Assembly: GCA_002423615.1 (NCBI GenBank)
Contig: DIKO01000105.1
Coordinates: 507 to 64,506, forward strand
Length of the DNA: 64,000 bases
DNA from: Desulfobacteraceae bacterium UBA5616
GTDB taxonomy: Bacteria > Desulfobacterota > Desulfobacteria > Desulfobacterales > UBA5616
Direction: 5' to 3'
In this document: piece by piece, positions 1,894 to 64,000 of the stretch
Position numbering within the stretch: position 1 is the stretch's first letter
Layout: the number at the start of each line of letters is the position of its first letter
Made by a program: the position numbers and the translations under genes
Notes under the pieces: model-generated
The model's database searches: none
Told to the model about the DNA's origin: nothing
The model's input: only the letters and a program-made list of their open reading frames with translations

Positions 1894-1900
1894 GGAACTG

Positions 1901-3155: not shown

Positions 3156-3172
3156 GCGACACCTCCGTTGGC

Positions 3173-8376: not shown

Positions 8377-8441
8377 CTACATTTTCAAAATGCAAAAGAG
8401 TCGCATAAAAAATTACCCAAATTCGACAGGAGGAGCAATCT

Positions 8442-9761
8442 ATGACGGATCGTGTGGTTAAACTCGGCGGTAAAAAAAATTCAACCTTTATGGACAAGGT
8501 TAAGAAAATTTTGCCGGAAGGCGGAAATTTAAACCTTTGCCTGACCTGCGGGGCCTGCTCTTCGGGCTGCCCGGCCACGGGCCTGGACGGGATGGACCCC
8601 CGGAAATTTTTGCGGATGGCGGCCCTGGGGATGGATGAAGAAATCGCAAAATCCGACTGGCCGTGGATGTGCACCATGTGCCAGCGCTGCATTTACGTCT
8701 GCCCAATGAAAATCGATATTCCCCAGCTCGTCTATAACGCCCGGGGACTCAGGCCTCGGGAGGAACGGCCAAGGGGTATCCTGGGCTCCTGCGACATGGC
8801 CCTGAGGAATAAAAGTACCAGCGCCATGGGAACCTCACCGGAGGATTTCGCCTTTGTGGTCGGAGATGTTCTTGAGGAGTACCGGGAGGCCCAGCCTGAA
8901 TTCGCCGACATGGAGGCCCCCATCGACAAACAGGGTGCGGAATTTTTTTTAAACCAGAACTCAAGAGAACCGGTCACCGAACCGGACGAAATGGTCCCCC
9001 TGTGGAAAATTCTTCATCTGGCAGGAGTCGACTGGACTTACGGCAGCAGCGGCTGGGGCGGCGAGAACTATTGTATGTTCCTCGCGGACAACGATTCCTG
9101 GGAGCAGATCACCCGCACCACCGTAGATCAAGCCAACCAGCTGGGGGTTAAAACGTTCCTGAACACCGAGTGAGGCCACGTGACATTCTCAGTCCTGGCA
9201 GGACTGAAAAAATTCAACCTCGAACACCATTTTGAAGTCAAAAACATCTACGAGTACTACGCCAAATGGATCCGGGAAGGCAAGCTCAAGGTCAACTCCG
9301 ACTGGAACAAGGATCTGAAAATCAAATTTACCGTACAAGACCCCTGTCAGATCGTTCGAAAAAGTTATGGAGACCCCATTGCCGAGGATCTCCGGTTTGT
9401 GGTGAAATCCGTGGTGGGGGAGGAAAATTTCATCGACATGACCCCCAACCGGTCCAATAATTACTGCTGCGGCGGCGGCGGGGGTTTTTTGCAATCGGGT
9501 TTCAAGGAACAGCGGCTGGAATACGGGCGATTAAAGGACCAGCAGATAAAGGCCACGGGCGCCGACTACTGCATTGCCGGCTGCCACAACTGCCATGCCC
9601 AGATCCATGAGCTCAGTGAACATTACGGCAGCGGATACCCGGTGGTGCATCTGTGGACCTTGATCTGCCTCTCCCTGGGGGTTCTGGGACCCAATGAGCG
9701 GGAGTACCTGGGGGACGATCTCAAGGAAGTCAATGTCTTCCACCCGGAGACGGCCATGTAA
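8442..9761 (+). CDS. HdrD/GlpC-like Fe-S oxidoreductase (2x CxxCxxCxxxCP plus CCG domains), probable selenoprotein with in-frame UGA at 9171-9173
   Basis: Track ORFs 8442..9173 and 9180..9761 are in the same frame, separated only by TGA-GGC-CAC. The N-part has CLTCGACSSGCP and CTMCQRCIYVCP. The C-part has a canonical CCG domain (C-x39-CCG-x36-CHNC). The UGA sits in C-x31-E-U-G, where the first CCG motif is expected. A hairpin follows the UGA. Confidence 0.7.
9189..9207 (+). promoter_or_regulatory. putative bacterial SECIS hairpin
   Basis: CAGUCCU-GGC-AGGACUG is a perfect 7-bp stem (plus a flanking U-A pair) starting 16 nt after UGA 9171-9173, with a G-rich apical loop. Confidence 0.5.
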
Positions 9762-9777
9762 TCAACAGAAATCGGTC

Positions 9778-10143
9778 ATGACGGAAAATTTAACGATAAC
9801 AGAACTCGAAAAACGCTGGGATCATGTTTTGTCGGCCACCCAAAGGGCTGTAAACAAAAATCCCGGCGTTTACCGCCTTCTCAAATCCCTTGCCGGGGAT
9901 ATTGTTGAAAATCCCCTGGATATCCATGAGTACATGCCCACGGTGGGAAGGCTTTCCGATCTGCTTGAAACCCTGGACCCCGGGGGGAACGGCAGCATAT
10001 TCAGTATTTTCAACGAACGCATCAAACCCGCTTCCATCTGGCAGGTGGCCCTGTTGCGGGTGGAGTGCGGGGATCTTCTGGCCCATCTGAAGGAGTTTGA
10101 TAAATGGCGGTGTTCGAGCGCCGGATTGAGACTCGTGAAGTAA
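9778..10143 (+). CDS. hypothetical protein
   Basis: ATG 9778 lies just after the stop of the Fe-S gene. The track ORF from 9694 would overlap that gene. No motif recognised. Confidence 0.4.
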   Translation: MTENLTITELEKRWDHVLSATQRAVNKNPGVYRLLKSLAGDIVENPLDIHEYMPTVGRLSDLLETLDPGGNGSIFSIFNERIKPASIWQVALLRVECGDLLAHLKEFDKWRCSSAGLRLVK

Positions 10144-10281
10144 AGTCGGCTGCAACCGTCTCTGATCAGCCGGCAGCACCTTCGAAAACCTTGCTGCAAT
10201 TAGACCTCACCCCGTTCCTTCAAAACCGTTTCCTCAAAACCTTCGGCAAATCCATTGAATTATGCGGCACCGAAAACCGTC

Positions 10282-10342
10282 TTGACAGCCGGGTGCGGGC
10301 CCGGATATACTGACACGTAAATTTTATTTATCGTGTCAGTAT
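10282..10342 (+). promoter_or_regulatory. sigma-70-like promoter overlapped by an 11-bp perfect inverted repeat (candidate operator)
   Basis: TTGACA (10282-10287), 18 nt, TATACT (10306-10311). ATACTGACACG (10307-10317) and CGTGTCAGTAT (10332-10342) are exact reverse complements separated by 14 AT-rich nt. Confidence 0.5.
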
Positions 10343-10373
10343 GACATCACTCCCATCGACCAAGGAGACCGTG

Positions 10374-11333
10374 ATGCAGTTTCAAACCGCCGGAGTCGAA
10401 GTCGCTGTCTGGGTCCCTCCCCTGGTGGCGTTCGTTATTTCCTTTTTCACATCCATGGGGGGCGTGTCGGGTGCTTTTCTGATTTTACCCTTTCAGATGT
10501 CATTTCTCGGCTACACCCACCCTTCGGTGAGCGCCACCAACCAGCTCTACAATATCGTCGCCATCCCGAGCGGCGTGTACCGTTATTGGAAAGAAGGCAG
10601 AATGGTGTGGCCCCTCACCTGGATTGTCATAACCGGCACCCTGCCCGGGGTTTTCATCGGCGCTTTTCTCAGGGTCGCTTATCTGCCGGACCCAAAAAAT
10701 TTCAAACTGTTCGCAGCGGCCGTACTCCTTTATATCGGCATCCGGATGGCCGGGGACCTGGTCCGGAAAAAATCCGGCGCCAACGACAAGGTCGCCGGCG
10801 ACAAACGTTTCCAGGAGATGGTGCGGCGGCGACGGGAAAAAATGGACTCCCGGGACCTCGCTAATAACGATTTACCCGCCGTGAAGGTCACTCATTTTAA
10901 TTTAAAGCGTCTGGGGTACACTTTTTACGATGAGCAGTTCGATGTTCCCTTCTGGGGGATCTTTTCCTTGAGTTTTATCGTGGGAATCGTGGGCGGCATC
11001 TACGGCATCGGCGGCGGTGCGATTATCGCCCCCTTCTTTGTGACATTCTTCAGGCTGCCGGTCTATACAGTGGCCGGAGCGGCCCTCATGGGGACCTTTG
11101 TGACATCCATTGCCGGCGTGGCTTTCTTCCAGGCCTTGGCGCCGTTTTATCCGAACATGTCCGTAGCTCCGGACTGGCTGCTGGGCGCTTTGTTCGGTTT
11201 GGGCGGCATGGCCGGAATGTATCTCGGTGCGCGTTGCCAGAAATTCGTACCGGCCAGGGCCATCAAATGGATGCTGGCCGGCATTCTCCTTTTTACGGCA
11301 TTCAAATACATCGCTGAATTTTTGGGGTATTGA
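10374..11333 (+). CDS. TSUP (TauE/SafE) family anion exporter
   Basis: Polytopic protein with duplicated Gly-rich TSUP motifs (MGGVSGAFLILPF, GIGGGAIIAPF). ATG 10374 has an AAGGAG RBS 6 nt upstream. The track start at 10341 is also possible. Confidence 0.75.
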   Translation: MQFQTAGVEVAVWVPPLVAFVISFFTSMGGVSGAFLILPFQMSFLGYTHPSVSATNQLYNIVAIPSGVYRYWKEGRMVWPLTWIVITGTLPGVFIGAFLRVAYLPDPKNFKLFAAAVLLYIGIRMAGDLVRKKSGANDKVAGDKRFQEMVRRRREKMDSRDLANNDLPAVKVTHFNLKRLGYTFYDEQFDVPFWGIFSLSFIVGIVGGIYGIGGGAIIAPFFVTFFRLPVYTVAGAALMGTFVTSIAGVAFFQALAPFYPNMSVAPDWLLGALFGLGGMAGMYLGARCQKFVPARAIKWMLAGILLFTAFKYIAEFLGY

Positions 11334-11363
11334 TGCAGGACAAACCGCCGCCCGATCAGAAAA

Positions 11364-11654
11364 TCAGGATTGTCCGTTCATCATCCAGCCGTTCATCAGC
11401 GTCCATGCACCCACCGCGACAAAGGCGATCCCGGCGCCGATTTTGATATACTGCTCCGGGACCCAGCGGCTTATCAGGTCCCCGAGCAAAACAGCCATGA
11501 GAGTGCATGCAATCAACGCTCCGGCTGACCCGATAAATACCGAGACCTTGGATTTGCTCCCCGCCGCCAGCATGAGAGTGGCCAGTTGGGTTTTATCGCC
11601 GACTTCGGCCAGAAACACCAGACCGAAGGTGGTCAACAGGATCTTCAGATTCAT
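11364..11654 (-). CDS. GDT1/TMEM165 (UPF0016) family half-size membrane protein
   Basis: 96 aa, 3 TM, with the signature E-x-G-D-K-T (LAEVGDKTQLAT). Confidence 0.75.
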   Translation of the reverse strand: MNLKILLTTFGLVFLAEVGDKTQLATLMLAAGSKSKVSVFIGSAGALIACTLMAVLLGDLISRWVPEQYIKIGAGIAFVAVGAWTLMNGWMMNGQS

Positions 11655-11671
11655 TCCGCTTTCCTTCCGCG

Positions 11672-13696
11672 CTACGCCCTTTTGTTAACCATGGCCAGGG
11701 CTTTTTCCGCAATGTTCGCGGCGGTGAAACCGAATTTTTCCAAAACGGTTTTTCCGGGGGCCGAAGCGCCATATCCTTCTATGCCTATTATTGCGCCCTC
11801 TGATCCCACATATTTTTCCCATCCCATGGGGATACCCGCCTCAACCGCCAGGCGGGTTTTCACTTCGGGCAACAGGACCCGGTCCCGGTAGGGTTGAGGC
11901 GTCTTGTCGAACAATTCCCAGCTCGGCATGCTCACCACCCTGGCAGAAACGCCTTTTTCGGCCAGAATATCTTTTGCCCCCAGGCAGACATGAACCTCTG
12001 AACCGGTGGCGATCAGAATGATATCGGGTTTTCCCGGAGCATCCGACAGCACATAGGCCCCTTTGCTCAGGCCGTTTTCCCCATTGCTGTTTTCCAGGAT
12101 GGGCAGTTTCTGCCGGCTCAGGAGCAGAGCCACGGGACCGTTGTTGGTTTTCAGGGCCTGGCGCCAGGCTTGGGCCGTTTCAATGGCGTCGGCCGGGCGA
12201 ATCACCGTGAGATTGGGAATGGCCCTCAATGCCGCCGTATGTTCAACCGGCTGATGGGTGGGCCCGTCTTCTCCCACGGCGATGCTGTCGTGGGTAAACA
12301 CATAAATAACCGGCAGATTCATGATAGCCGCCACCCGGATGGCGGGGCGCATGTAGTCGGAAAAAACCAGGAAGGTCCCGCCATAAGGCCTGATCCCGTT
12401 ATGGAGGAACATTCCGGACATGACGGCCCCCATGGCGTGCTCCCGGACACCGAACCGGATGTTCCTTCCTTCATAGCATCCCTTTTGAAATTCGGCCGTC
12501 CCGTCCAGATAGGTCTTGTTGGAAGGAGCCAGATCCGAGGAACCGCCCATCAGCGTCGGAAGGTTTTTCGCGATGGCATTGAGCACCTTGCCCGAGGCCG
12601 CACGGGTTGCCATGGGTGGATCCCCTGCCTTGAACCGGGGGATTTCAGCATCCCACCCATCGCTCAGGTACCCGCTGAACGCATCGGCCCATTTCCCGGC
12701 CAGGTCCGGCTGGGCCTTGGTGTAGGCGGAAAATTTCGTCTGCCAGTTGTTTTCTGCGGCCGCTCCCTTGTCAATAGCCTTCCGGAATACGGCCAGTGCA
12801 TCCTCGGGAATATAAAACGCCATTTTTTCAGGCCAGCCCAGATTTTTTTTGGTAAGCCGAACCTCTTCCTCACCCAGAGGAGACCCGTGGGCGTCGGCCG
12901 TGCCCTGTTTGTTGGGACTGCCGAAAGCGATCTGCGTTTTTATTTTGATCAGAGAAGGCTTTTTCGTCTCGGCCCGGGCGGATTCGACGGCCTTTGCAAT
13001 GGCCGATACGTCATTCCCATCCCCCACTTCCTGAACATGCCATCCGTAAGCCTCGAACCGCCTGCCCACATCTTCGGTAAATGCGATATCCGTGGAACCT
13101 TCGATGGAAATATCATTGTCGTCATAAAGGCAAATCAATTTTGAAAGACCCAGATGGCCCGCCATGGATGCGGCTTCAGATGCCACTCCCTCCATCATGT
13201 CCCCGTCCCCGCACATCACATACGTGTAATGGTCCACAATGTCATGACCCGGCCAGTTGAAACAGGCGGCAAGATGCCGCTCGGCCATGGCCATGCCGAC
13301 GGCGTTGGCCATACCCTGCCCCAGGGGTCCGGTGGTGGTTTCCACTCCCGGGGTGTGCCCGAATTCGGGATGGCCGGGGGTGTTACTTCCCCACTGGCGA
13401 AAATTTTTCAGGTCCTCGAGGCTCACGGCGTAGCCGGTAAGATGCAACAGACTATAGAGAAGGGCGGATGCATGCCCGCAGGAAAGGATGAAACGATCCC
13501 GGTCCAGCCATGCCGGATTTTTCGGATTGTGATTCAAAAACTTCGTCCACAGAACATAGGCTGCGGGGGCCAGGCCCATAGGAGCGCCGGGGTGCCCCGA
13601 GTTGGCTTTTTCCACGGCATCCATGGATAACGTCCGGATGGTATTGATGCAAAGGGTGTCGATATCGGCCATGCCTTTCGGCAATCCCTCACTCAT
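11672..13696 (-). CDS. tkt: transketolase
   Basis: 674 aa with [27 protein letters not shown] and [17 protein letters not shown] motifs. Confidence 0.95.
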
Positions 13697-13828
13697 GGTC
13701 TGTCTCTCCTTATTATACGATTTTTTAATTGCTTAGCGGCTTAAATGTCCGGTTTGATACAATCCTTTAACCTTGGAAGCAAGGATTTTTTATGAAAAGC
13801 GGCATGAACTTTTGCTGGATAAACCGGT

Positions 13829-14682
13829 CTAATAAATGACCCCGGTTTCCTTAAGCCGGGCGATGTCCTCCCAGGTGCAGCCGTTTTCCAGGAGAATCTC
13901 CTCGGTATGCTGGCTGAATTCAGGGGCCGGCATCCGGACTTTTTCCGGATAACCGGATAAATGGATGGGGTTGGCCACCCCTTCAATGGTGCCGTGTTCG
14001 GGGTGCTCATAGGAAATAAAAAACCCATTGGCCCGGGCCTGGGGATCGTTGACCACTTCCAGATGGGTCTGGACGGGAGAGTATGGGATGTCCGCCTGAT
14101 TCAACAGATCCTTCCACTCCTCCAGGGTTTTTTCTTTGAAAGCGGCTTTCAGCAGATCGGTCAGGGCGAGCTTGTTTTCCATTATTTTTTCCGCGGTTTC
14201 GAACCTCGGATCGGATATCAGATCCTTACGGCCGATACCGGTAAAAAACCGGGCTGCATACCGTTCCAGATTAAGGACCGAAAACAGGAGCCACCGGTTG
14301 TCCTTTGCCTGATACTGCCCATATAGCGGGTGGGGCACGTCTTTTTCCGGCGATATTGAGACGCAATCCTCGCCGGTGACGATGGAACCGGAAAGGTCGA
14401 AGGCCGGGGTGTTCTTCTCGGGTCCCTCTTTTCCAAAGCCGTTTAAATTCCCGCAAACGAGCCTTTCGTTTATGTTACGGAGCTCTTCATATTCCAGATG
14501 TAATTGATGTTCGACTGAATGCCGGTTTTCATGCCGGCCAGAACCCAGCGGAAAAGATCCCCGGTGATGGTATTCTCCACATGAATTACTTCCGCGCCGA
14601 AATCCGCCAGAATTCTCGCCGTCATGGGGACGGCGGCGACCTGGGACACATCCACGATTTTGATGCCATTCAGAGGCAGCAT
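13829..14682 (-). pseudogene. family III (CaiB/BaiF) CoA-transferase, internally deleted and frameshifted
   Basis: The N-terminal 70 aa (LNGIKIVDVSQVAAVPMTARILADFGAEVIHVE) end at TAA 14470. The remainder (EYEELRNINERLV..NGFGKEGP...DPRF...EEWKDLL...) continues in another frame. The total of about 285 codons is well short of the roughly 400 usual for this family. Confidence 0.6.
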
Positions 14683-14736
14683 GAGATTCCTCCAATATTT
14701 GACGATTTGACCGTCAGAAAAATCCGTGAGTTTTGA

Positions 14737-15471
14737 TCAGTAGGTTTTGACGATTCTGCCGAAGCCCAGTTCCATGTGGGAAACCCGGTAATTGGCCCCC
14801 AATACCTGTTTGACCCGCAACTTGTGCCAGGGATCCAGGGTGGAATCGGCGTGAAACCTGACCCACCCGGGTCCGGAAAACGATTCCACCACCGTGACGT
14901 TTTGAGGGACTTCAATCAGTTCCATGAGGGACGGAGGGGCATCTTTTTCAGGGCTGGGAATTACCCTCAGGCTCAATACGCCGATGCCGGATTCCGCTTC
15001 TTCAACCGGCGTTTCCGGTCTCATCCCCGCAGAACAGATCAGGTTCCCCTTGGGACGCTCCATTTTTCCGACAACCATGTCGAATTCTTTTGAAATCGTG
15101 ACATCGGCGATTTTTTTGGGATACCCCCAGATCTCTCTTCCGGCGGCCTGAGGGATATCATTGTTGACGACGATATGGGGGATGTAGATTTTCAGCTCGC
15201 CGTTAAAGAGGCAGGGGATGCAGAGGATGGTTTCTTCATATTGGCCCAGGGTGCTGAAGGGGTATTTGACGAATATCAGGGCTGCGGTGGCCGGTTCGGG
15301 CAAAATCAGGCCCTCGGGCAGAAGTTTGGCGGCTTCATCAGGATCCGTCTCATAGCTGATGGTGATCGCTTCGGCAAACCGGTAGTGAATGGGGGGCCTG
15401 GCATATAATGGTGCATCCCCCGGCATGTCGTATCCCATGTTCGCTTTGTTCAATTTTCCTGTCAGTGTCAT
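14737..15471 (-). CDS. acetoacetate decarboxylase family protein
   Basis: 244 aa with an ADC-like N-terminus (PLYARPPIHYRFAEAITISYETDPDEAAKLLPEGL). Confidence 0.65.
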   Translation of the reverse strand: MTLTGKLNKANMGYDMPGDAPLYARPPIHYRFAEAITISYETDPDEAAKLLPEGLILPEPATAALIFVKYPFSTLGQYEETILCIPCLFNGELKIYIPHIVVNNDIPQAAGREIWGYPKKIADVTISKEFDMVVGKMERPKGNLICSAGMRPETPVEEAESGIGVLSLRVIPSPEKDAPPSLMELIEVPQNVTVVESFSGPGWVRFHADSTLDPWHKLRVKQVLGANYRVSHMELGFGRIVKTY

Positions 15472-15631
15472 GATAGCCTCCTTGATTTTAATGTTAAAAT
15501 ATCGTGGACGATGAACGGTTCAGGGACATGAGTTTAAGGTTGAGAGCGGAACGATTAAGGGTGTTGAAGGATAAAGATGTCTTGATATTTACCCCGACGA
15601 AAGGGTGGCCGTCAATAAAAAGAAAATGCGG

Positions 15632-16501
15632 TTACAAAGCCCGCATCCACTCCGGCCTTAACCGCACCCGGCCTTCAAGGGCCAGATCGATGAGCCGCAG
15701 GGTTTCTTCCTTTTCCCTGGGAAATTTCGCTTTGATCGGCAGATAATTGGAGGCGTGGTTGGCGGTGAACAAACCACGGGAGAGCTCGGTATGGGCGATC
15801 ATGGTCCTTAATTCGCTGAGCATTTCCAGCGAATTCAGCAAGGGAAACCGCCCGGCTTCATGGTCTTCGAAAAGAGGAGTACCGGGGATGAGCATCAGGC
15901 TTAAGGCCCCCACGAATTCCGGATCAATGGCCGAAATCACCCGGCCGGTTTCCCTGGCGTGGATCTCTGAACGCTCCTTTCCGGCGATCCCCAGCAGCAC
16001 GGTGAGAGAAAGCTTGAAGCCGGCTTCCCGGGCTTTTTTACCCATTTCGATCATGCGCTGGGAATCGGCGCCTTTCCGGACGGCCTTCAAAGTCACATCG
16101 TCCCCGGACTCAAGGCCCATGTAAACGATACCGAGGCCGTATTCCTTAAGCTCCTTCAATTCATCAAGGGATTTCATGGAAAGGGCCTTGGTGTTGGCAT
16201 AGGTCCCGACCCGGGTAACCCAGGGGACCTGTTTTTTAATTTCCTTTAAAATGTTCAAAAGTCTTTTCCGGGGAACAATCAAGGCATCCCTGTCGCAGAG
16301 AAAAACCCTCCGCTGGCGTTTGCAATAAGCGGCGGCGAACTCGATATCCGCCATGACGATCTCATCCGGCTTGATTTTAAAAGGCGCCCTCCCGTTGGCT
16401 CTGCAGAAGGTGCACTTGTTGTGGGAACACCCCACGGTGATCTGCAGCAGTATACTGTCGGCCTCACTGGGGGGCCGGATAATGTCTCCTTCGTAATGCA
16501 T
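15632..16501 (-). CDS. radical SAM protein
   Basis: CSHNKCTFC matches CxxxCxxC, with a TIM-barrel-like remainder. The start ATG 16501 abuts the etfA stop (16504-16506). The track start at 16549 would overlap etfA. Confidence 0.75.
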   Translation of the reverse strand: MHYEGDIIRPPSEADSILLQITVGCSHNKCTFCRANGRAPFKIKPDEIVMADIEFAAAYCKRQRRVFLCDRDALIVPRKRLLNILKEIKKQVPWVTRVGTYANTKALSMKSLDELKELKEYGLGIVYMGLESGDDVTLKAVRKGADSQRMIEMGKKAREAGFKLSLTVLLGIAGKERSEIHARETGRVISAIDPEFVGALSLMLIPGTPLFEDHEAGRFPLLNSLEMLSELRTMIAHTELSRGLFTANHASNYLPIKAKFPREKEETLRLIDLALEGRVRLRPEWMRAL

Positions 16502-54502: not shown

Positions 54503-54961
54503 ATGGGAAAATCAACCCAATTGAAAAAGGTTCTGGTTATCCATGGCCCGAATTTAAACATGCTGGGCAAAAGAGAGCCCGGGTTATACGGCACTCTCCC
54601 GCTTCCGGACATCAATCAGAAACTCACGGAACTGGCGAAAACCCTCGGTATGGGGGTTGACACCTTCCAATCCAACCATGAAGGCGGCATCATCGATAAA
54701 ATCCAGTCCGCCATGGGCAATTATGACGGTTTGATCATCAATCCCGCAGCCTACACACACACGAGTATCGGCATCCGGGACGCTCTGTTGCTGTTGAGCG
54801 TCCCGGTCATTGAGATTCATCTGTCGAACATTTATAAGCGGGAACCCTTCCGCCACAGGTCCATGATATCCGATATCGTCACGGCCCAGCTTGCCGGTTT
54901 CGGGCCGGACGGGTATTTCATGGCACTGGAAGCCATTCATAAAATATTGGAACAGCCGTGA
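54503..54961 (+). CDS. aroQ: type II 3-dehydroquinate dehydratase
   Basis: 152 aa with HGPNLNMLGKREPGLYG and IINPAAYTHTSIGIRDA. Confidence 0.95.
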   Translation: MGKSTQLKKVLVIHGPNLNMLGKREPGLYGTLPLPDINQKLTELAKTLGMGVDTFQSNHEGGIIDKIQSAMGNYDGLIINPAAYTHTSIGIRDALLLLSVPVIEIHLSNIYKREPFRHRSMISDIVTAQLAGFGPDGYFMALEAIHKILEQP

Positions 54962-56139: not shown

Positions 56140-56688
56140 ATGTTTATGGCCAGATTATCACAAGAAAAGATGGAAAAACAAGCACAACCCAAAAAAGAGC
56201 GGGTGAATACCCTTGGGGTGGCAACGCCGGATGCCGGCAGCCTTGAAGAACTCACCATGCAAAAATTCAAACTCCAAGAATCAAACGTGGCGTTAAGGGT
56301 TCTCCTGAAGAAGCGCGATGAGGACAAGGTCGAGATTGAAGAAAAAATGATATATAACATCAAAGAGTTGGTTAAACCTTACATTGAAAAATTAAAGGAA
56401 ACGGAGTTAACTTCCAAACAATCGGCCCTGGTAAGCGTTATCGAATCCAATATTGACGATATTATCTCTCCTTTTGTAAGGGACATGTCTCTGAAATTTA
56501 TGAAACTGACCCCCATGGAAATTCAGGTGGCCAATCTCATCAAACAGGGGAAAACCACCAAACAAATTGCCGAATTGATGAATTTGTCCGGCAGGACCAT
56601 TGAAACCCACCGGAAAAAAATCCGCACAAAAATCGGAATCGGAAATAAGAAGGCGAATTTAAGATCCCATCTCCTGTCCCTCCAATGA
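56140..56688 (+). CDS. LuxR-family HTH protein with coiled-coil N-terminus
   Basis: C-terminal LTPMEIQVANLIKQGKTTKQIAELMNLSGRTIETHRKKIRTKIG, a GerE/LuxR HTH. Confidence 0.8.
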   Translation: MFMARLSQEKMEKQAQPKKERVNTLGVATPDAGSLEELTMQKFKLQESNVALRVLLKKRDEDKVEIEEKMIYNIKELVKPYIEKLKETELTSKQSALVSVIESNIDDIISPFVRDMSLKFMKLTPMEIQVANLIKQGKTTKQIAELMNLSGRTIETHRKKIRTKIGIGNKKANLRSHLLSLQ

Positions 56689-57596
56689 TCATCGACGTCC
56701 ACACCCATCTCGGCGACATCTTATACGCAGGCGGCGGCCGGTTGATTTTACGGAAAGGGGTTGTGAAAAATGCCGCTTTTGACCTGATCTCCCTGACCGA
56801 GAGGGGACTGTACAGATCCAACGCCATGATGGAATGGCTGCTCAATACCTTTTTCACCGACACGATCGCCAATGCCTGCCGATACCGGAACGCCACGGCG
56901 ACCTTGGAAAATATGCGCAAATCCATGGATGAAAACAAGGTACTGCGGTCGGTCTGCCTGCCCATTTTACCGAACCTGACGTTTGACGACCTCAAAGCCG
57001 CCGGCAAGCTGGATGAGGGCATAATTCCATTTACCGGCGTTGATTTTTCCGGGGATTTTAACCCGGATGCGGTGTTTCGAAACGATGTGGCCTCAGGGGC
57101 CAGAGGGTTGAAGCTGCATCCCATCCTCCAGCAGGAACCGTTAAACAGCCGGAAGACCTGTGCGGCGGTGGACGCATTTGCCGTTCACGGCTTGCCCGTG
57201 CTCTTTCACGCAGGCGTTCAGTCCTACTACCGGGGCCTGGAAAAAGAAACACGGCAGCGGCCCGAATACGGTGAACCACGCGAAGGATTTGCGATTGTGA
57301 AAGCGTTTCCCCAAATCCCGTTTATCGTCGGCCATGCCGGAATCTTCCAGTATCGCGAGACGATCGGGCTTTTCAGCAGTTTGAAAAATGCCCACGTGGA
57401 CACTTCATTCCAGTCTCCGGCACGGATTCGGGAGCTGATCAAGGCATTCGGACCGGAACGGGTCATGTTCGGTTCGGACTGGCCCTGGGGGAACCGCAGG
57501 GCCAATATCGCCTCGGCGTCCAAGGCGTGCCGGGGCGACAAGTCGCTTGAAAAAGCAATTTTTTATGACAACGCGGCACGGCTTTTGAAGATATGA
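56685..57596 (+). CDS. amidohydrolase-2 family metal-dependent hydrolase
   Basis: 303 aa with MIIDVHTHLGD (HxH), HAG and GSDWPW. Confidence 0.75.
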   Translation: MIIDVHTHLGDILYAGGGRLILRKGVVKNAAFDLISLTERGLYRSNAMMEWLLNTFFTDTIANACRYRNATATLENMRKSMDENKVLRSVCLPILPNLTFDDLKAAGKLDEGIIPFTGVDFSGDFNPDAVFRNDVASGARGLKLHPILQQEPLNSRKTCAAVDAFAVHGLPVLFHAGVQSYYRGLEKETRQRPEYGEPREGFAIVKAFPQIPFIVGHAGIFQYRETIGLFSSLKNAHVDTSFQSPARIRELIKAFGPERVMFGSDWPWGNRRANIASASKACRGDKSLEKAIFYDNAARLLKI

Positions 57597-57642: not shown

Positions 57643-58359
57643 TTACGATTCAGGATTTACAGCCTGCTGCGCCAATAGTTCTCTCAGCCATTCCGGTTCC
57701 GCCTGGGGATTGCCTTCCAGGAGGGCGGCAATTTTTCCAGTGACCTGCGCGGCGGCAAAACTGTGTCCCGAAAAATTCATGTTTTCAGGAATCCCAGTCA
57801 ATTTTCGCGGCCGGCCCGATGCGCCGAATTCGATCCTGCAGCCTGGATGGCAGATAATTTCCCCCTTCCGGCACTGCCGATTCCAATACACGCCGATGAC
57901 TCCGGGCAAGCCTGCGGGGAAAATATCGTCTTCCGGAGACCGTGCGGCGGCAACCATAATGATATGCTTCCTGTATGCTTCACGGCACAACTGCCCCAAC
58001 CTGGCCTTGCAGGCGTCCTGTTCGGTTCCGAGGCTTAAATGAATGATTTTCATATTCTCATCAATGGCCCATTTGAGCCCGGCTATAAGCAGGTCCACGG
58101 GCGCTTTTAATTTGTCATAAAATATTTTGACCGCATACATGTCCGCGTCCGGCGCCTTTTCCCGAATGACGCCGGCGATTGCCGTTCCATGGCCGATATG
58201 ATCGGAAAAATCAGGGTTCTCGATGATATCCGCGGTTTCATCCATCCGAAACGAAATACCTCCGGAAACACCATGGACATGGGGATGAAAGGGGTTAATC
58301 CCGCTGTCGATAATCGCCACCGGCACACTCATGGGCAAATCCTTCTGCCGGGCCTTCAT
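57643..58359 (-). CDS. qhpE: minimal subtilisin-like (S8) serine protease, QhpE-like leader peptidase candidate
   Basis: 238 aa with no pre-pro region. The catalytic triad context is AIIDSG (Asp), HGTAIAG (His) and SGHSFAAAQVTG (Ser). It is the last gene of the qhp-like cluster. The start is uncertain (58359, 58332 or 58326). Confidence 0.6.
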   Translation of the reverse strand: MKARQKDLPMSVPVAIIDSGINPFHPHVHGVSGGISFRMDETADIIENPDFSDHIGHGTAIAGVIREKAPDADMYAVKIFYDKLKAPVDLLIAGLKWAIDENMKIIHLSLGTEQDACKARLGQLCREAYRKHIIMVAAARSPEDDIFPAGLPGVIGVYWNRQCRKGEIICHPGCRIEFGASGRPRKLTGIPENMNFSGHSFAAAQVTGKIAALLEGNPQAEPEWLRELLAQQAVNPES

Positions 58360-60073
58360 ACGCCAGACCCCGGCTGTCTAAAGCAATAATTCTATCCGCA
58401 TGGGCGATCGCGGAATACCGGTGGCTCACGATCACGATGGTTTTATCTTCCATTAAATGACCCAGCGTGTCTTTTAAACGATCCTCCGTGGAAACATCCA
58501 CAAATGCCGTGGCCTCGTCCAGTATCAGGATTTTCGGCTTCATTAGAACGGCCCGGGCAATGCTGAGCCGCTGTTTTTGCCCGCCCGAAAGAAGTACGCC
58601 CCTGTCGCCTATGACCGTGTCATACCCGTTGGGCAGCGTTTGAATAAACCCGTCAATGCAGGCGGATTCAGCCGCCGACCGGACCTCGTCCATGCCGGCG
58701 CAGGGCTTTGGAAACCGGATATTTTCAAGGATGGTCGTATGAAACAGGAAAATATCCTGGGAAACAATTGCTGCCTGTTTGCGGAACCATTCTGGGTTAA
58801 TGGTTTTAAGATCAATGCCGCCGATTGTGATGACCCCTGAATCCGGGTCGAAAAGCCGCAGCATCAAATGGCATAAGGTTGTTTTCCCTGCTCCGCTGGG
58901 GCCGATGATTGCCGTGATCCTGCGGCCGGGGATCTGAAAGGACATATGGTTTACCACCGGTTTTCGATCATAGGCAAAACAGACATCCCGAAATTCAATA
59001 TCCCCGGTGACGGCGGCCTCTTTTTCCGGGATTATGCCGCCGCAGGTGGTTTGAACGGGCAAAATATCGAGAATCTCCCTGACCCTGGCCAGGCTGACCA
59101 GTGATTTCTGCAGGGATAAAAAACCGTCCATCAGCGCTTTTAACGGGCCGAATACCCTGCCCTGGTAGATCGAAAACGCCACCAGACTGCCGATCGTCAG
59201 GGTGTGTGCCAGCACGAGCGAACCGCCGTAACCGAATACCACCACGGCGTTGAGAATCACAAAAACGGTCGGAATTGATCCGGAAACAGCGCCCAGCACC
59301 TGATATCGCATCAGAAACCCCAGAATATGAGACTGTTTTTCATTGAGTCTGCTCCGCTCGATCTTTTCAGCGCCAAAGGCTCTGATCATATGGGTATTGC
59401 TGAGGGATTCAAATATAAAATGCGAAATTTCCGCGTTGCTTCGGGCCACCTGATGGCCCAGGTCCAGCAATTTCGGACGAAGGCGATAAATTATAATAAG
59501 GGCCGCCGGCAGAAAAGCGAAGCTTAACAACGCCATTTTCCAGTTCAATGCCATCAGCACGCCGGCGGCGATCAGACAGGTGAGCAGATTGAATGCGACC
59601 ATGGGAAGGACATCGGTCGCAAGGGATTGAATATCGGCCATATCCGATGCGATGCGGGAATAGAGATCCCCGATTTTCTGCTTTGAAAAAAAGTTGAGGG
59701 GAATTTTCTGAACGTGCTCGAACAGGTCCTCCCGCATGTGAAACAGTATTTGCGCGGAATAGCGCATATAGAGGAAGCTGTTGATCACCCGGATCGCAAA
59801 AGCAAACAGGATCAGGGCCAGGAGCAGTGATAACACGGGCCATAACAACCGGTGGTCGGCGGCAAGAAACACCTTGTCGATCAGAACCTTGGCAAAATAA
59901 GGCTGCGTCATTCCGAAAACAGTGCTCAGACCGCTTAACACAAGGGAAAGAATCAAGATTTTTTTCCGCGGCTTCAGGTATTTTCCCAGATAGGCAAGCT
60001 GTGTCCCGGAAATGTATCCGGCAACACCGTTTGATTTTTTCCGGATCGGTTTCAGGTTTCGCGAAAATAACAC
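58295..60073 (-). CDS. qhpF: ABC exporter (fused TMD-NBD), QhpF-like
   Basis: 592 aa with 6 TM segments plus an NBD (GPSGAGKTT, LSGGQKQRLSIARA, ILILDEAT). There is no C39 peptidase domain. Confidence 0.6.
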   Translation of the reverse strand: MLFSRNLKPIRKKSNGVAGYISGTQLAYLGKYLKPRKKILILSLVLSGLSTVFGMTQPYFAKVLIDKVFLAADHRLLWPVLSLLLALILFAFAIRVINSFLYMRYSAQILFHMREDLFEHVQKIPLNFFSKQKIGDLYSRIASDMADIQSLATDVLPMVAFNLLTCLIAAGVLMALNWKMALLSFAFLPAALIIIYRLRPKLLDLGHQVARSNAEISHFIFESLSNTHMIRAFGAEKIERSRLNEKQSHILGFLMRYQVLGAVSGSIPTVFVILNAVVVFGYGGSLVLAHTLTIGSLVAFSIYQGRVFGPLKALMDGFLSLQKSLVSLARVREILDILPVQTTCGGIIPEKEAAVTGDIEFRDVCFAYDRKPVVNHMSFQIPGRRITAIIGPSGAGKTTLCHLMLRLFDPDSGVITIGGIDLKTINPEWFRKQAAIVSQDIFLFHTTILENIRFPKPCAGMDEVRSAAESACIDGFIQTLPNGYDTVIGDRGVLLSGGQKQRLSIARAVLMKPKILILDEATAFVDVSTEDRLKDTLGHLMEDKTIVIVSHRYSAIAHADRIIALDSRGLAYEGPAEGFAHECAGGDYRQRD

Positions 60074-61041
60074 ATATACCCCTTTTCACAATACTGCGGC
60101 GTATTTCTGAGTTTTTTGGCCAAGGCCTCGACAGCATCCCACGTTGAATTGCGCCGGACTTCCGTCATGACTTCCGCAACCAGTTGAAGACTTCTCATTT
60201 TTCGATAAAAGGATGCCTCACGGCCGACGATTTTAACGGCGGAAACTCCCCAGTCCCTGAATTGCCCGAACCGGCAGAGGCTGCAGGGACCATTGGGCAA
60301 TCCTTCGGACTGGAAGCTGCATCCGCAATTGTTCTGATACCAGAGAAATTCACGGAACCTTTCCATGTCCTTCATAAGCGCTTCTTTGCCGATCTTCTTT
60401 CCCGATCCCGGAAAAAATTCAGGCGTCCAGTCGGTCATGCAAAACGGGCCCAGGGCATGGGAGGTCTGGCAAAATCCCTCTTCAAAATAACATCCGTCGT
60501 TAACGGCAAACACCTCGAATTCCATGTTCAACCTGTTTTTCTTGACGATCGATTCTATTTCAGAAAGATTCAGGTGCCGGGGGAGGATGATCCGTTTCAC
60601 GCCGAGAAAACCGTAGTATTCCACGGATTCCGAGTTGGTGCAGGCGCCCAGGCTGCTTAAATGGATTTTAACCGGCAGTTTTTCCTTGCCAAGCGCGATT
60701 AAAAAATTGAGATCCGATACGATCAGTCCGTCGATTTCAGCCAGCGCGACCAGTTTTTCGCAAAACCGCAAAATGGGTCCTACGCTGTCGTGAGGATAAA
60801 ACGGTGAATTAAACGTGATGTAAACCGCCGCCTCTTTTTCATGAGCAAGTTTTGTTATCTTCAAGACATCCTGAAATGAAAAGAGATTGCCCGCGGCCGG
60901 ATCCCTTCTGTTGATCCACAGTCCCCCGCCGTAGGCACTGTCCCATTCCGGCAGGCCGATGCCGGCATACAATTCATCCGCGCCGAAATGCAGAAGCATC
61001 TCCGTTTCTTCCAAACGACATACGGGGGCAGCAATTTTCAT
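60052..61041 (-). CDS. U32 family protein, UbiU-like
   Basis: 329 aa. EVFAVNDGCYFEEGFCQTS fits the spacing of the U32 signature E-x-F-x2-G-x2-C-x4-G-x-C-x2-S. SAVKIVGREAS resembles the UbiU segment ASVKIEGRQRS. It has additional Cys (CMTD, CGC, CSLC). Confidence 0.75.
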   Translation of the reverse strand: MKIAAPVCRLEETEMLLHFGADELYAGIGLPEWDSAYGGGLWINRRDPAAGNLFSFQDVLKITKLAHEKEAAVYITFNSPFYPHDSVGPILRFCEKLVALAEIDGLIVSDLNFLIALGKEKLPVKIHLSSLGACTNSESVEYYGFLGVKRIILPRHLNLSEIESIVKKNRLNMEFEVFAVNDGCYFEEGFCQTSHALGPFCMTDWTPEFFPGSGKKIGKEALMKDMERFREFLWYQNNCGCSFQSEGLPNGPCSLCRFGQFRDWGVSAVKIVGREASFYRKMRSLQLVAEVMTEVRRNSTWDAVEALAKKLRNTPQYCEKGYMCYFRET

Positions 61042-61047: not shown

Positions 61048-61923
61048 TTATAACGCAAATCCTTGATACACGAGGCGGAATGAACCTTCCACCGAAGTAA
61101 AAACGGTGTTGAGCACGGCCGCTGGATACAGGTAGTAAATCGTATTGCCGTTTTGAAACAGTCTGAACTGAAACCGCTCATGCACCAGCTCCAGCACCTG
61201 ATGCGTGCAGGGCCGAAGGCAGTCTTCGCGGATCAAAAACTTTTCTCTTCCCTTCCCTTTTCGAGATTCGGCCTGGCACAGGCGGCCGGTAGTAACAACC
61301 CCAAAGGGAAAATATACGGATACTCCCATGTCCGAAAGGCCCCGGCTGATGCCGGATCCGTAGGGCAGGATGTCCTGCTCGATGCGCCGGACATTGATGG
61401 ATGACAGATGCTCCAGAAACGTCCGGTGGCGAAAAGTGCTCTCGTTGAGGGCATTCTGCATGGATTCAGACATCGAAGCGTCATCCCACGGCCAAACGAA
61501 CCGGGGGTCTTTGAATCCTTTGTTGAATAACCGGCCCGCAGCCAGGCGCAGACCGGGGTATTTTTTTCGCACATGCCATAAAACACCCGGGTCATTTGTG
61601 ACCACCTCGGCCCCCGGGCAGTCATTTTCAAGACAGGCAAACAGGGGGGCGCATTTTTCAAGATGCCGGTCGGTCATGGGCGGCGTCAGGAATGTCAGAC
61701 CGGCGGTGTGGTTTTGTGAAAACCGGCTGAACTCGCGGATTTCCTTTAACGAGGGCAGGCGGTGAAAACAAAATTCATCCCCGATATACAGCCGGTAAAT
61801 CTTTTCGGAACTGCAGCCAAAATCAGCAGGGACATTTTCCGGATAAAAGGAACGCAGATGGCGGATCAGGATATGTTCAGATATCTCCTGCTTCAGATCC
61901 CGCACATGAAACGCCAGTTCCAT
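61048..61923 (-). CDS. U32 family protein, UbiV-like
   Basis: 291 aa. LYIGDEFCFHRLPS resembles the UbiV segment IYLGEAVCSKRR. Further Cys are present (CAPLFACLENDC, GRLCQ, CLRPC). There is a 6-nt gap to the UbiU-like gene. Confidence 0.6.
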   Translation of the reverse strand: MELAFHVRDLKQEISEHILIRHLRSFYPENVPADFGCSSEKIYRLYIGDEFCFHRLPSLKEIREFSRFSQNHTAGLTFLTPPMTDRHLEKCAPLFACLENDCPGAEVVTNDPGVLWHVRKKYPGLRLAAGRLFNKGFKDPRFVWPWDDASMSESMQNALNESTFRHRTFLEHLSSINVRRIEQDILPYGSGISRGLSDMGVSVYFPFGVVTTGRLCQAESRKGKGREKFLIREDCLRPCTHQVLELVHERFQFRLFQNGNTIYYLYPAAVLNTVFTSVEGSFRLVYQGFAL

Positions 61924-61929: not shown

Positions 61930-62478
61930 CTATCGGGCGCCGCCGTCCGGTAAGGCGGCTGTTTCAACAGGTTTTACGGGTTCATAAAACTTTTGCCCGT
62001 TTCGCATTTCATGGTTATGGCAGTCTTTGCACGGCTGCCTCGAGATATCGTTGATCAGGGCTTTATGAATGGTGAGTTGATCGATTTCCTTATGGTTTTT
62101 AGCCTCCTTGCACGTAAAGCACCGGCTGTTGGGCACATGGCTCCAGTACCCGGGTTCCAGATCGTCTTTTAAAAAAAGCGGTTCGGCAATGGGTTTCAGG
62201 GGTTCATCGGGGTCTCTTTTAAAATGGGCTACCAATTGCTTTGCCGACGAAACGTTCATGTCCATCCACCCGGCAAACCCGGCATCAAAGTGACAACCTG
62301 CGCAGTTCGGATGATTTTTGGCGGTCCGGGATTCTTTCCAGCGGTTGACCGGATCTCTCATCTCATGGCAGACAATGCAGGTCTTGTCCGGGAAATATCG
62401 CATCGAGGCTTCATGTACGCCAAGCCCCAGGAAAAACAACACCAGCAAAACGGTGACGATCGATATCTTCTTTTTCAT
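61930..62478 (-). CDS. membrane-anchored NapC/NirT/NrfH-type multihaem cytochrome c
   Basis: 182 aa with an N-terminal TM. Haem motifs are CIVCHEM (CxxCHxM, as in NrfH haem 1), CAGCH, CFTCK (Lys in place of His) and CKDCH. Confidence 0.8.
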   Translation of the reverse strand: MKKKISIVTVLLVLFFLGLGVHEASMRYFPDKTCIVCHEMRDPVNRWKESRTAKNHPNCAGCHFDAGFAGWMDMNVSSAKQLVAHFKRDPDEPLKPIAEPLFLKDDLEPGYWSHVPNSRCFTCKEAKNHKEIDQLTIHKALINDISRQPCKDCHNHEMRNGQKFYEPVKPVETAALPDGGAR

Positions 62479-62516: not shown

Positions 62517-63548
62517 TTATTGTGAAAACCGATTGAACACCATGGCATCCCCGCCCACGGGAATGGCCGTCTCGAATTTCAACGTTTCTGCGTCATAAAT
62601 GCTGACATCCGCGCCCATGGCCCCGATATAGACTTTCTTTCCATCCGGGCTCAAGGCGATGGAGGTATAGCTTCCCCTTTCCGCATAGGTCGCGTTGACT
62701 GTTTCCCCGGTGGCCACATCCACTTTGACCAGTTCATCGTGACCGGCATAGATGTATTTTTTGTCCGGCGACAACGCAGCGGAAAAAGGCATGGCCATCT
62801 CCTTGCTCTTGATCGACCTGATTTCTCCGGATACCATATCCAGAATCAGATAATACAACCCGGAGGACGCGTAATACGGAGCGGCAAACAACTGATGGTC
62901 TCCGGGACTGTTGTTGGTGTACATGGCGACGATGCTTCTTTGCTCCTGGTCTTTTTCCGCATGAATGCCGGCCATGATCATTTCAAGTTCACCGGTTTTC
63001 AGATTGATTTTATACACATCCAGCCCGAACAGAATCGCATGGTCCGGGTCATTTCGAACCGGAAATATGCCGTGGACCCCATAGGGCAATTCGTAACTCC
63101 GAACCACTTCCTTCTTCCCGATGTCAAATATCGCAAACTGCGGGGGCAGAACATTGAGTTTGGGAATATTCTGCTTTTTCTTGACGATCTGGCAGCTTAC
63201 AAAGAGTTGTTTCCCGTCGTTGGACACCGCTGTGGTAAAAATCGTCACACGGCTCAGATCCGTTGAAAATCTGTACGTATCGATCAGTGAAAAGGTCTTC
63301 GTATCCACTGCAAAAATGGAATGCAGGGCATTGAGATAATATCTCCTCCCGTCCGGCGAATAGCTGGTATTCAACACATAATCGGAGTAACGCGCGCCCT
63401 CGATGACCCGGCCGGTTTCGCAGTTCACCACATCCAGCCCCTTTACGGTGGGGACAAGGATGTAATCGACAGCCAGGACGGGCAATTGGAAAAGTGCCCA
63501 TACCACCAAAGTCCATAGAAAAATCACAAGCTTGATTCTGCTTTTCAT
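62517..63548 (-). CDS. qhpB: secreted 7-bladed-type beta-propeller, QhpB (amine dehydrogenase beta subunit)-like
   Basis: 343 aa with a signal peptide and repeated YVTN-type blades (SYSPDGRRYYL, AVSNDGKQLFVS, ALSPDKKYIYAG, ALSPDGKKVYIG). Its size and its position after the qhpC-like gene match QhpB. Confidence 0.6.
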   Translation of the reverse strand: MKSRIKLVIFLWTLVVWALFQLPVLAVDYILVPTVKGLDVVNCETGRVIEGARYSDYVLNTSYSPDGRRYYLNALHSIFAVDTKTFSLIDTYRFSTDLSRVTIFTTAVSNDGKQLFVSCQIVKKKQNIPKLNVLPPQFAIFDIGKKEVVRSYELPYGVHGIFPVRNDPDHAILFGLDVYKINLKTGELEMIMAGIHAEKDQEQRSIVAMYTNNSPGDHQLFAAPYYASSGLYYLILDMVSGEIRSIKSKEMAMPFSAALSPDKKYIYAGHDELVKVDVATGETVNATYAERGSYTSIALSPDGKKVYIGAMGADVSIYDAETLKFETAIPVGGDAMVFNRFSQ

Positions 63549-63562: not shown

Positions 63563-63889
63563 TTACCTTTTAATCACATAATTCAAATTTTTCCAATCTT
63601 TCTGAATCGTTGCGCACTGTTCCTGATAATCGGGGAAAGCGGTGATGTTGTCCGGGGTCTGGGCCGGCCACCAGCACGGTCCGGAGCAGTTGCTCCAGTC
63701 CCGCGCGCTGGAAGCACAATTTCCAACAGGCGCCGCAGGATTGGGGTTGGTCTCCCAGCCGGGATCAAAAACAGTGGTGCAGCCGATGGGCATTCCGGTG
63801 ATCACATCTTCATCCGCCATGCCGAAAACTTCTTCTTCCGCCATTTTCTTTGCCCTCCTGTTAATGGGCTTCAATCCTTTTTTCTTCAT
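63563..63889 (-). CDS. qhpC: QhpC-like gamma-subunit precursor (cysteine tryptophylquinone / thioether-crosslinked peptide)
   Basis: 108 aa. A basic/acidic leader is followed by GCTTVFDPGWE...NCASSARDWSNCSGPCWWPAQTPD. The spacings C37-E46 (9), C58-D64 (6), C68-W74 (6) and C72-D80 (8) equal those of the known crosslinks. An AAGGGGG RBS is present. Confidence 0.8.
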   Translation of the reverse strand: MKKKGLKPINRRAKKMAEEEVFGMADEDVITGMPIGCTTVFDPGWETNPNPAAPVGNCASSARDWSNCSGPCWWPAQTPDNITAFPDYQEQCATIQKDWKNLNYVIKR

Positions 63890-63904: not shown

Positions 63905-64000
63905 TCAATGTCCTCTGAGTCGTGCAAGACGATCCAGATAGTCGGGCCGGTCGATGGCAAGCTTGGCATACACCGTCAGCCCGATTCCCGTCCATTCCCT
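63905..64000 (-). CDS. 3' end of an unidentified upstream gene (5' part outside the window)
   Basis: Open frame ...REWTGIGLTVYAKLAIDRPDYLDRLARLRGH ends at TGA 63905-63907, 15 nt before the qhpC-like start. Synteny with qhpADCB would predict a qhpD-type radical SAM gene, but the sequence visible here cannot show that. Confidence 0.4.
   Translation of the reverse strand, partial: REWTGIGLTVYAKLAIDRPDYLDRLARLRGH

Follow-up and report, generated by a model that had tools for sequence, protein, structure and literature searches.

The 64,000-nucleotide stretch of DNA analyzed in this work (below, the window; contig DIKO01000105.1 of Desulfobacteraceae bacterium UBA5616, positions 507 to 64,506) ends within a group of genes related to the qhp genes, which encode a periplasmic quinohemoprotein amine dehydrogenase (QHNDH) and the proteins of its maturation. 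The central element of this group is a short gene at 63563–63889 that almost certainly encodes QhpC, the precursor of the QHNDH gamma subunit, which bears the cofactor cysteine tryptophylquinone (CTQ). Judged from its genes, the operon appears to be a variant QHNDH maturation system in which QhpG, the hydroxylase of the described pathway, has been replaced by a pair of UbiV/UbiU-like proteins (designated V and U), and its QhpC is a new member of a distinct five-cysteine (five-Cys) subfamily.

The part of the locus lying beyond the window end was supplied by the same metagenome contig in the data of the Joint Genome Institute (JGI 3300002220, 68.6 kb; locus L001). The order of genes on L001 is TetR regulator, qhpA, qhpD, qhpC, qhpB, NapC/NirT-type cytochrome gene, V, U, qhpF and qhpE; the qhp genes are located on the same strand, and the genes of the operon adjoin or overlap. 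QhpA, QhpB, QhpD, QhpE and QhpF are all encoded together with QhpC on this contig, and each qhp product shares 27.5–38.5% identity, across most of its length, with the corresponding protein of Paracoccus pantotrophus. QhpA (545 aa, encoded upstream of qhpD) scores above the cutoff of its family model (TIGR03908, 308.7 bits, cutoff 274.35). QhpD, 34% identical to Paracoccus QhpD, and QhpE score slightly below theirs (TIGR03906, 433.4 bits, cutoff 453; NF049966, 163.3 bits, cutoff 165). QhpB is 28% identical to Paracoccus QhpB over 334 residues (E 8e-20), and the placement of its gene after qhpC is kept in 80+ loci; for QhpF the identity is 27.5% (E 1.6e-45), and its synteny is kept as well. The ABC transporter and protease genes that the initial annotation of the window had placed downstream of qhpC were found there, the protease being subtilisin-like (Table 1). 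A scan of the operon for promoters and terminators gave results at chance level. The host was judged to be an anaerobe from its nearest relatives, metagenome-assembled genomes (MAGs) of the Desulfobacterales type. In the JGI annotation the present QhpC is a 'hypothetical protein' and the present QhpB a 'DNA-binding beta-propeller fold protein YncE'.

Table 1. Genes and features of the qhp operon inside the window (window positions).
Feature	Position	Strand	Description
qhpD 3' end (radical SAM thioether-forming maturase)	63905..64000	-	runs past window end; whole gene, 472 aa, on L001
qhpC	63563..63889	-	108-aa gamma-subunit precursor, five-Cys subfamily; NF037958, PF08992, alignment to 1jju_C and 1jmx_G
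QhpC leader, residues 1-30	63800..63889	-	boundary predicted from alignment with the leader of Paracoccus/Pseudomonas (28 residues)
QhpC core, residues 31-108 and stop codon	63563..63799	-	predicted thioethers, predicted CTQ pair, extra C92
qhpB-like beta-propeller subunit, divergent	62517..63548	-	343 aa, signal peptide; TIGR03907 85 bits (cutoff 223.2)
NapC/NirT/NrfH-type tetraheme cytochrome c, membrane-anchored	61930..62478	-	182 aa; PF03264 34.5 bits (cutoff 24.1)
V, remote U32 homologue, UbiV-like partner (predicted)	61048..61923	-	291 aa; invariant C52, C216, C235, C239
U, U32-family (UbiU/TrhP-like) predicted Fe-S protein	60052..61041	-	329 aa; PF01136 97.8 bits (cutoff 22.4)
qhpF-like ABC exporter	58295..60073	-	592 aa; ABC_membrane and ABC_tran domains
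qhpE subtilisin-like leader protease	57643..58359	-	longest open reading frame 238 aa; called gene 229 aa, start 58332

The qhpC reading frame begins with an ATG codon 15 nt after the qhpD stop codon, and a Shine-Dalgarno-like sequence, AAGGGGG, is located 8–14 nt 5' of this ATG. QhpC scored 120.5 bits with the NCBIfam model NF037958 (QH_gamma; cutoff 50; E 2.5e-35), with residues 2–106 aligned to model positions 2–103/104, and 69.5 bits with the Pfam model PF08992 (cutoff 25). Since the peptide passes the cutoffs of both curated family models, its resemblance to QhpC, proposed in the initial annotation from the letters of the sequence, is not a matter of chance.

In characterised QhpC three thioethers connect Cys to Asp or Glu residues, and the pair Cys37 and Trp43 becomes CTQ (PMC7876137). 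An independent count of the present translation gave C37, E46, C58, D64, C68, C72, W74, D80 and C92, reproducing the positions and the spacings of 9, 6, 6 and 8 residues that had been reported for the cross-link partners. These spacings had also been claimed to be identical with those of the Paracoccus denitrificans gamma subunit. In a phmmer search against PDB, QhpC residues 35–105 were aligned with residues 5–74 of 1jju_C (E 8.6e-15), and a match to 1jmx_G was obtained as well (E 2e-14). The register is the same with both structures: C37, E46, C58, D64, C68, C72, W74 and D80 fall on residues 7, 16, 27, 33, 37, 41, 43 and 49 of 1jju_C. The alignment to the solved gamma subunits contains one single-residue gap, between the first and the second Cys, exactly where an insertion had been suggested. 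Thus, thioethers C37–E46, C58–D64 and C72–D80 and the CTQ pair C68–W74 are expected in the present peptide. All eight of these cross-link and cofactor residues are invariant in 84 aligned QhpC sequences, and CWWPAQ is likewise an invariant motif.

Comparison with QhpC of P. denitrificans (1JJU, 1PBY) and Pseudomonas putida (1JMX, 1JMZ) revealed a common family hidden Markov model, the four Cys, Glu16, Asp33 and Asp49, and Trp43. The motifs GCTT.FD.GWE and CWWPAQ, whose likeness to known QhpC had been pointed out, are indeed shared between the present locus and the characterised QhpC systems, together with the N10/A13 motif of the leader and the gene order qhpD-qhpC-qhpB. At the same time, the present QhpC is just 38% identical to Paracoccus QhpC, has SARD[FW] in place of MEADL around the second cross-link and ends with VIKR. 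On its own it is an ordinary, if divergent, member of a well-known family.

Characterised QhpC has a leader of 28 residues that is cut off by QhpE (PMC7876137). Because the first Cys is residue 37 here and residue 35 in the precursor from P. pantotrophus, whose leader comprises 28 residues, a leader of 30 residues may be predicted by homology. The length of about 30 residues proposed in the initial annotation was thus borne out, and the predicted length is ordinary for the family. Residues M1, N10 and A13 of the leader are invariant across both QhpC subfamilies described below. It should be noted that an alternative public gene call begins QhpC at M16 (93 aa), with the loss of the conserved leader motif. 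Cytoplasmic modification followed by export, which had been deduced from the leader, agrees with the published pathway, in which leader-dependent modification in the cytoplasm is followed by QhpE cleavage and QhpF export (PMC7876137); homologues of qhpD, qhpE and qhpF are present in the operon.

The 84 aligned QhpC sequences form two groups, a five-Cys group (n=37) and a canonical four-Cys group (n=47). The fifth cysteine, C92, had been described as having no counterpart in the known scheme, and it is real: column 92 contains Cys in 37/37 five-Cys sequences and Ala in 40/47 canonical ones. The one-residue insertion between the first and the second Cys (P54) is fixed in the five-Cys group too. 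C92 and the insertion are therefore fixed traits of a distinct QhpC subfamily and not quirks of a single sequence. No subfamily-specific conserved Cys was found in QhpA, QhpB or QhpD, so that no inter-subunit disulfide partner for C92 is visible there. The only invariant acidic residues outside the cross-links are D42 and D98. The spacing C92–D98 is +6, the same as in C58–D64, and both sites have the form [R/K]-D-aromatic (CASSARDW and CATIQKDW). An AlphaFold2 model of QhpC had a predicted local distance difference test score (pLDDT) of 46, with a helix weakly predicted over residues 88–106, and was too poor to judge the proximity of C92 and D98. Conceivably, C92 is a free thiol or forms a fourth thioether with D98.

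The canonical set qhpABCDEFG(R) is not fully matched here, with qhpG missing from both the window and L001. The reference QhpG was taken from the canonical operon of P. pantotrophus and confirmed by NF049967 (402.9 bits, cutoff 240) and by its match to 7ctq_A, 'peptidyl tryptophan dihydroxylase' (E 2e-43). A tblastn search for QhpG in the 64-kb window gave no match even at E<=10, and no QhpG was seen on L001 or on two related loci, L007 and L008. This FAD- and O2-dependent peptidyl-tryptophan dihydroxylase (7CTQ; NF049967) is likewise absent from all five-Cys-type operons surveyed. In its step cross-linked QhpC receives two oxygens on the Trp of CTQ (PMC7876137), and the present system must carry out this step too. 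QhpG is described as essential, and 16O2/H2 18O labelling revealed that it draws both oxygens from O2; in addition, it markedly boosts QhpD cross-linking via a QhpCDG ternary complex (PMC7876137). CTQ biogenesis has been described via the QhpG route only (PMC7876137; 2025 review of protein-derived cofactors, PMC11951088). Because its oxygens come from O2, QhpG is unusable by an anaerobe. QHNDH operons nevertheless occur in strict anaerobes, and since the described route needs O2-dependent QhpG, the O2-free insertion of oxygen for CTQ is left without a known enzyme. Apart from the V/U pair, no candidate oxygen-inserting enzyme was found among the genes of the operon.

The V and U genes stand in the place of qhpG in the present operon, and their products are unrelated to this flavoprotein in fold and cofactor (Fe-S and TIM-barrel-type, as predicted). 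For U, the best curated models are NCBIfam UbiU (66.5 bits, cutoff 440) and TrhP (62.5 bits, cutoff 534), both far under cutoff. U is 26% identical to Escherichia coli UbiU over 198 aa and has nine conserved Cys, including C184-X6-C191 (CX6C). V gave no Pfam or NCBIfam match and no meaningful HMMER profile match in PDB or Pfam. A word search gave 121 clusters for its family, and an exhaustive HMMER search at E<=1e-3 gave 1997 representatives. Four Cys, C52, C216, C235 and C239, are invariant in 106 V sequences and form the pattern CXnCX18CX3C; for UbiV the pattern is CXnCX12CX3C (PMC6747719). The AlphaFold2 model of V (pLDDT 85.5; predicted template modeling score 0.86) shows a beta/alpha-barrel pattern and, after it, a C-terminal part rich in beta structure. 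Comparison of a broad V profile with the U-family profile by hhalign gave a probability of 93.3% (E 2.8e-7, 257 columns), and on the basis of this match V is regarded as a remote homologue of U32 proteins. In public annotations V is 'hypothetical' and U is a 'U32 family peptidase'. The U32 protein was also considered as the leader peptidase and rejected in this role, given that QhpE is present in all these operons.

The pair resembles E. coli UbiU-UbiV in that the two genes are adjacent in both cases and the proteins are of nearly the same length (329/291 aa for U/V and 331/292 aa for UbiU/UbiV). Similarly to UbiV, V carries the first of its four motif Cys far upstream of the others and closes the motif with CX3C. 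The pair is not orthologous to UbiU-UbiV and forms a subfamily of its own. V precedes U in the gene order, UbiT is lacking, and similarity of V to UbiV is undetectable by HMMER. When V was compared by hhalign with one E. coli UbiV sequence, the match was weak (E 0.011, probability 3.8%), with the Cys motifs lined up. A UbiV profile was uninformative, being built from homologues >=85% identical (one at 73%); the U family, used as a control, also failed with this profile (probability 0.9%). The presumed substrate differs too, being a protein-bound tryptophan for V/U and a prenylated phenol for UbiU-UbiV. Ubiquinone synthesis is not known from Desulfobacterota.

UbiU-UbiV is a heterodimer with two [4Fe-4S] clusters that carries out O2-independent hydroxylation of the ubiquinone ring, in which prephenate serves as the source of the oxygen (PMC6747719; PMC10990095). 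All functionally studied U32 members (UbiU/V, TrhP and RlhA) are tied to O2-independent hydroxylation of (hetero)aromatic rings (PMC10990095; PMC6747719), and with TrhP and RlhA this reaction takes place on RNA bases (PMC10990095). Most U32 subfamilies are uncharacterised (PMC10990095; PMC6747719), and the substrates listed in the prephenate paper are ubiquinone and RNA only (PMC10990095). TrhP and RlhA, which are needed for the formation of ho5U34 in tRNA and ho5C2501 in rRNA, belong to the same superfamily as U and are a precedent for macromolecular aromatic substrates, although their domain organisation and genomic context are unlike those of U.

To describe the distribution of the two gene sets, we surveyed 80 QhpC loci from reference genomes by tblastn. 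V/U without QhpG were found in 34 of them, QhpG without V/U in 30, both in one (L084) and neither in 15, mostly short contigs. Among the 52 loci with full 10-kb flanks the corresponding numbers were 20, 27, 1 and 4. V and U occurred together in 34/35 loci with either gene, the exception being a contig of 4.8 kb; distant V homologues also adjoin a U32 gene (L093, L095). We looked up three V homologues with 35–41% identity. In two of them (L007 and L008) the order qhpA-D-C-B-cytochrome-V-U-F-E was the same as here. The third, L006 (CP070710.1, Deltaproteobacteria MAG, 8465–11440), is reduced to qhpC, qhpB, V and a U32 gene truncated to 182 aa, with no qhpA, qhpD, qhpE or qhpF within 10 kb, and may be a decaying or split locus.

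Across deep QhpD divergence, the linkage of V/U to qhp persists in three or more gene orders. The pair lies between qhpB and qhpF, follows qhpF-qhpE in Aromatoleum and in alphaproteobacterial loci, or, in L047 and L090, is located upstream of qhpA. The hosts of the V/U type are Desulfobacterales, Desulforhabdus, Geobacter, Desulfuromonadales, Deferrisomatales, Rhodocyclaceae and Aromatoleum, Sterolibacterium, Magnetospirillaceae and several Burkholderiales/Betaproteobacteria MAGs, and those of the QhpG type include Paracoccus, Pseudomonas, Azospirillum, Halomonas, Caenispirillum and Stappia, among others. This distribution fits an oxygen split, with V/U in anaerobes and denitrifiers. In a neighbor-joining (NJ) tree of QhpD the V/U type is basal, and QhpG occurs in one derived clade.

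V/U-type operons are present in, among others, Desulforhabdus sp. TSK, CP070694.1 and Aromatoleum aromaticum EbN1 (CR555306.1). EbN1 has the order qhpA-D-C-B-F-E-V-U, where V is ebA5188 ('hypothetical protein') and U is a 'U32 family peptidase', and no QhpG within 10 kb. The QHNDHs of this strain reportedly initiate anaerobic amine degradation, in the words of a 2019 title by Schmitt et al. (J Bacteriol 201:e00281-19). If this title holds, CTQ can form without O2 in an organism with the V/U gene set. The EbN1 locus differs from the present one in several respects: its QhpC is of the canonical four-Cys type and 30% identical to the present QhpC, V/U come after qhpE instead of before qhpF, and there is no NapC/NirT cytochrome gene.

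Two further loci deserve mention. L084 (MAG Proteobacteria bacterium YP5.bin16, 5578–15800) stands alone among the loci surveyed in combining, within one qhp cluster, a QhpG-like gene (95 bits) with a V/U pair. It may represent a dual aerobic/anaerobic maturation set, in parallel with E. coli, which carries the flavin hydroxylases UbiI/H/F and UbiU/V. In L094 (JGI 3300027872 Ga0255058_10009589, 406–5043) a QhpD-like radical SAM gene (207–217 bits) is followed by a distant V homologue, ~32% identical, and by the beginning of a U32 gene; it is preceded by a gene for a 401-aa F5/F8-type-C protein ending ...SLCSPWQHDYRDCYCVYW..., and QhpA, QhpB and QhpC are all absent. The module of L094, in which a radical SAM enzyme is combined with V/U, may mature another protein, and such modules may serve further protein-derived cofactors.

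Based on the described pathway, the following course of maturation can be hypothesized for the present system. QhpD would bind the leader and make the thioethers C37–E46, C58–D64 and C72–D80. Trp74 of the leader-bearing, QhpD-cross-linked QhpC would be dihydroxylated in the cytoplasm by V/U in place of QhpG; the pair would be a U32-family Fe-S heterodimer resembling UbiV/UbiU and would act as an O2-independent counterpart of QhpG. QhpE would then take off the leader, QhpF would export the peptide, and the peptide would join QhpA and QhpB, with completion of CTQ (C68–W74). A functional tie of V/U to QHNDH maturation is in our opinion highly probable. By analogy with UbiU-UbiV, the pair is probably an O2-independent Trp hydroxylase replacing QhpG, and the composite explanation that includes this hydroxylase is one we favor with modest confidence. 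As a pattern in the genomes, the replacement of QhpG by V/U has good support; as a mechanism, it is plausible. There are about even chances that V/U represent the first protein-acting U32 hydroxylase, a new peptidyl-tryptophan dihydroxylase making CTQ in anaerobes, and that this is, as the QhpD tree suggests, the older state, later displaced by QhpG in aerobic lineages. We found no publication joining quinohemoprotein or tryptophylquinone with U32, UbiU or UbiV in the literature searched, outside of which lie subscription papers such as Schmitt 2019, and no mention of the locus tags ebA5184-5190 in the same literature.

Several explanations compete with this one. The set of leader, radical SAM/SPASM maturase, S8 protease and ABC exporter is typical of RiPPs (peptides made on ribosomes and modified after translation), and the peptide might be a secreted thioether-cross-linked natural product of this kind instead of an enzyme subunit. 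We rejected a stand-alone RiPP as extremely improbable: the gene is flanked by the structural genes for QhpA, above the TIGR03908 cutoff, and QhpB, the CTQ Cys/Trp pair and CWWPAQ are invariant, and the QH_gamma equivalog cutoff is exceeded more than two-fold. Alternatively, the system could be an ordinary qhp system with QhpG encoded elsewhere in the genome and with V/U as neighbors doing an unrelated job, e.g., as peptidases or as quinone or RNA hydroxylases. Our view of the genome is one 68.5-kb contig, some canonical genomes have qhpG several kb from qhpC or on the other strand, and in four of the full-flank loci both QhpG and V/U are missing from the vicinity. Unrelated neighbors would hardly be embedded in the operon, between qhpB and qhpF, with gaps that are small or replaced by overlaps, keep this placement in unrelated metagenomes in which V is 35–41% identical, and stay linked to qhp through three gene orders; V/U and QhpG co-occur in just 1/80 loci, and most hosts are strict anaerobes or denitrifiers, in which QhpG, needing O2, would be of no use as long as growth is anoxic. 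Taken together, this makes a hidden QhpG unlikely.

According to another explanation, V/U take part in QHNDH maturation in a different capacity, as Fe-S electron-transfer or scaffolding partners of QhpD, and the quinone oxygens are obtained otherwise, e.g., from water via periplasmic heme-dependent oxidation. QhpG itself promotes QhpD cross-linking through the QhpCDG complex (PMC7876137), both V and U have conserved Cys clusters, and the distant V/U pair of L094, outside any qhp context, has a QhpD-like radical SAM gene as its neighbor. On the other hand, the sole enzyme replaced by V/U is a hydroxylase, the operon has no other oxygen-inserting candidate, and all functionally studied U32 members are linked to O2-independent ring hydroxylation. 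We therefore consider a role short of hydroxylation rather doubtful, though less so than a hidden QhpG.

Some observations weigh against V/U as the replacement of QhpG. QhpG could be encoded elsewhere, the search having covered ~68 kb of this genome. The Fisher p of 1.6e-9 for the complementary occurrence of V/U and QhpG in the 52 full-flank loci overstates the independence of the loci, because they are related and Fitch parsimony on the QhpD NJ tree explains the V/U-QhpG distribution with 3 changes. The 4/52 full-flank loci with neither set suggest that V/U are perhaps not essential. The V/U pairs of qhp operons are known from genes alone, and they could replace only the scaffolding role of QhpG, since QhpG also stimulates QhpD cross-linking. 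The link between V and U32 proteins is indirect, coming from profile-profile comparison: V gave no match above the threshold of the Pfam U32 model (1/36 distant members matched at E 0.015), and Foldseek of the V model against PDB returned generic TIM barrels only (E about 4e-4). Finally, U is no orthologue of a known hydroxylase; since it lies far under the UbiU and TrhP equivalog cutoffs, its proposed function is extrapolated across the family.

The cytochrome encoded between qhpB and V has an N-terminal hydrophobic helix and the heme motifs CIVCH, CAGCH, CFTCK and CKDCH. With the NapC/NirT/NrfH/CymA quinol dehydrogenases it shares a PF03264 score above cutoff, the membrane anchor and four heme motifs in ~180 aa, but it did not reach the equivalog models NrfH (31 bits, cutoff 134), NapC and TorC. 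Also unlike these enzymes, it sits in a qhp operon and presumably runs in the quinone-reducing direction. The gene is kept at the same position in Desulfobacterota-type operons only. The cytochrome would take over the electrons of the QhpA hemes and deliver them to the menaquinone pool, and so stand in for the azurin or cytochrome c route to the oxidase in aerobes. Judged from its family and position, this is its most likely role, to which we give about even odds. It should be added that the third heme motif is CxxCK in 7/10 orthologues and CxxCH in 3/10, a Lys at this place being unusual for the family.

The present locus and ~35 relatives thus provide a specific candidate for the O2-free step of CTQ formation, the UbiV/UbiU-like Fe-S pair. 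If the proposed function is true, prephenate-type U32 hydroxylation extends from lipids and RNA to proteins, and two large protein sets now annotated as 'hypothetical' and 'U32 peptidase' gain a function, with the V family alone counting ~2000 cluster representatives. It would also offer a route to anaerobic production of CTQ enzymes and suggest that the anaerobic pathway predates the aerobic one. The linked NapC/NirT cytochrome, in turn, suggests a wiring of amine oxidation into anaerobic respiration.

Beyond the operon, a type II 3-dehydroquinate dehydratase gene (54503–54961, plus strand) is located ~3 kb past qhpE, beside rpe and rsmB. The enzyme belongs to the shikimate pathway, upstream of prephenate; its presence near the operon is probably coincidental, the gene being a housekeeping one. 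Two genes at 56140–57596 on the plus strand, just past qhpE and convergent with it, encode a 182-aa regulator of the LuxR/GerE type and a 303-aa protein of the Amidohydro_2 family.

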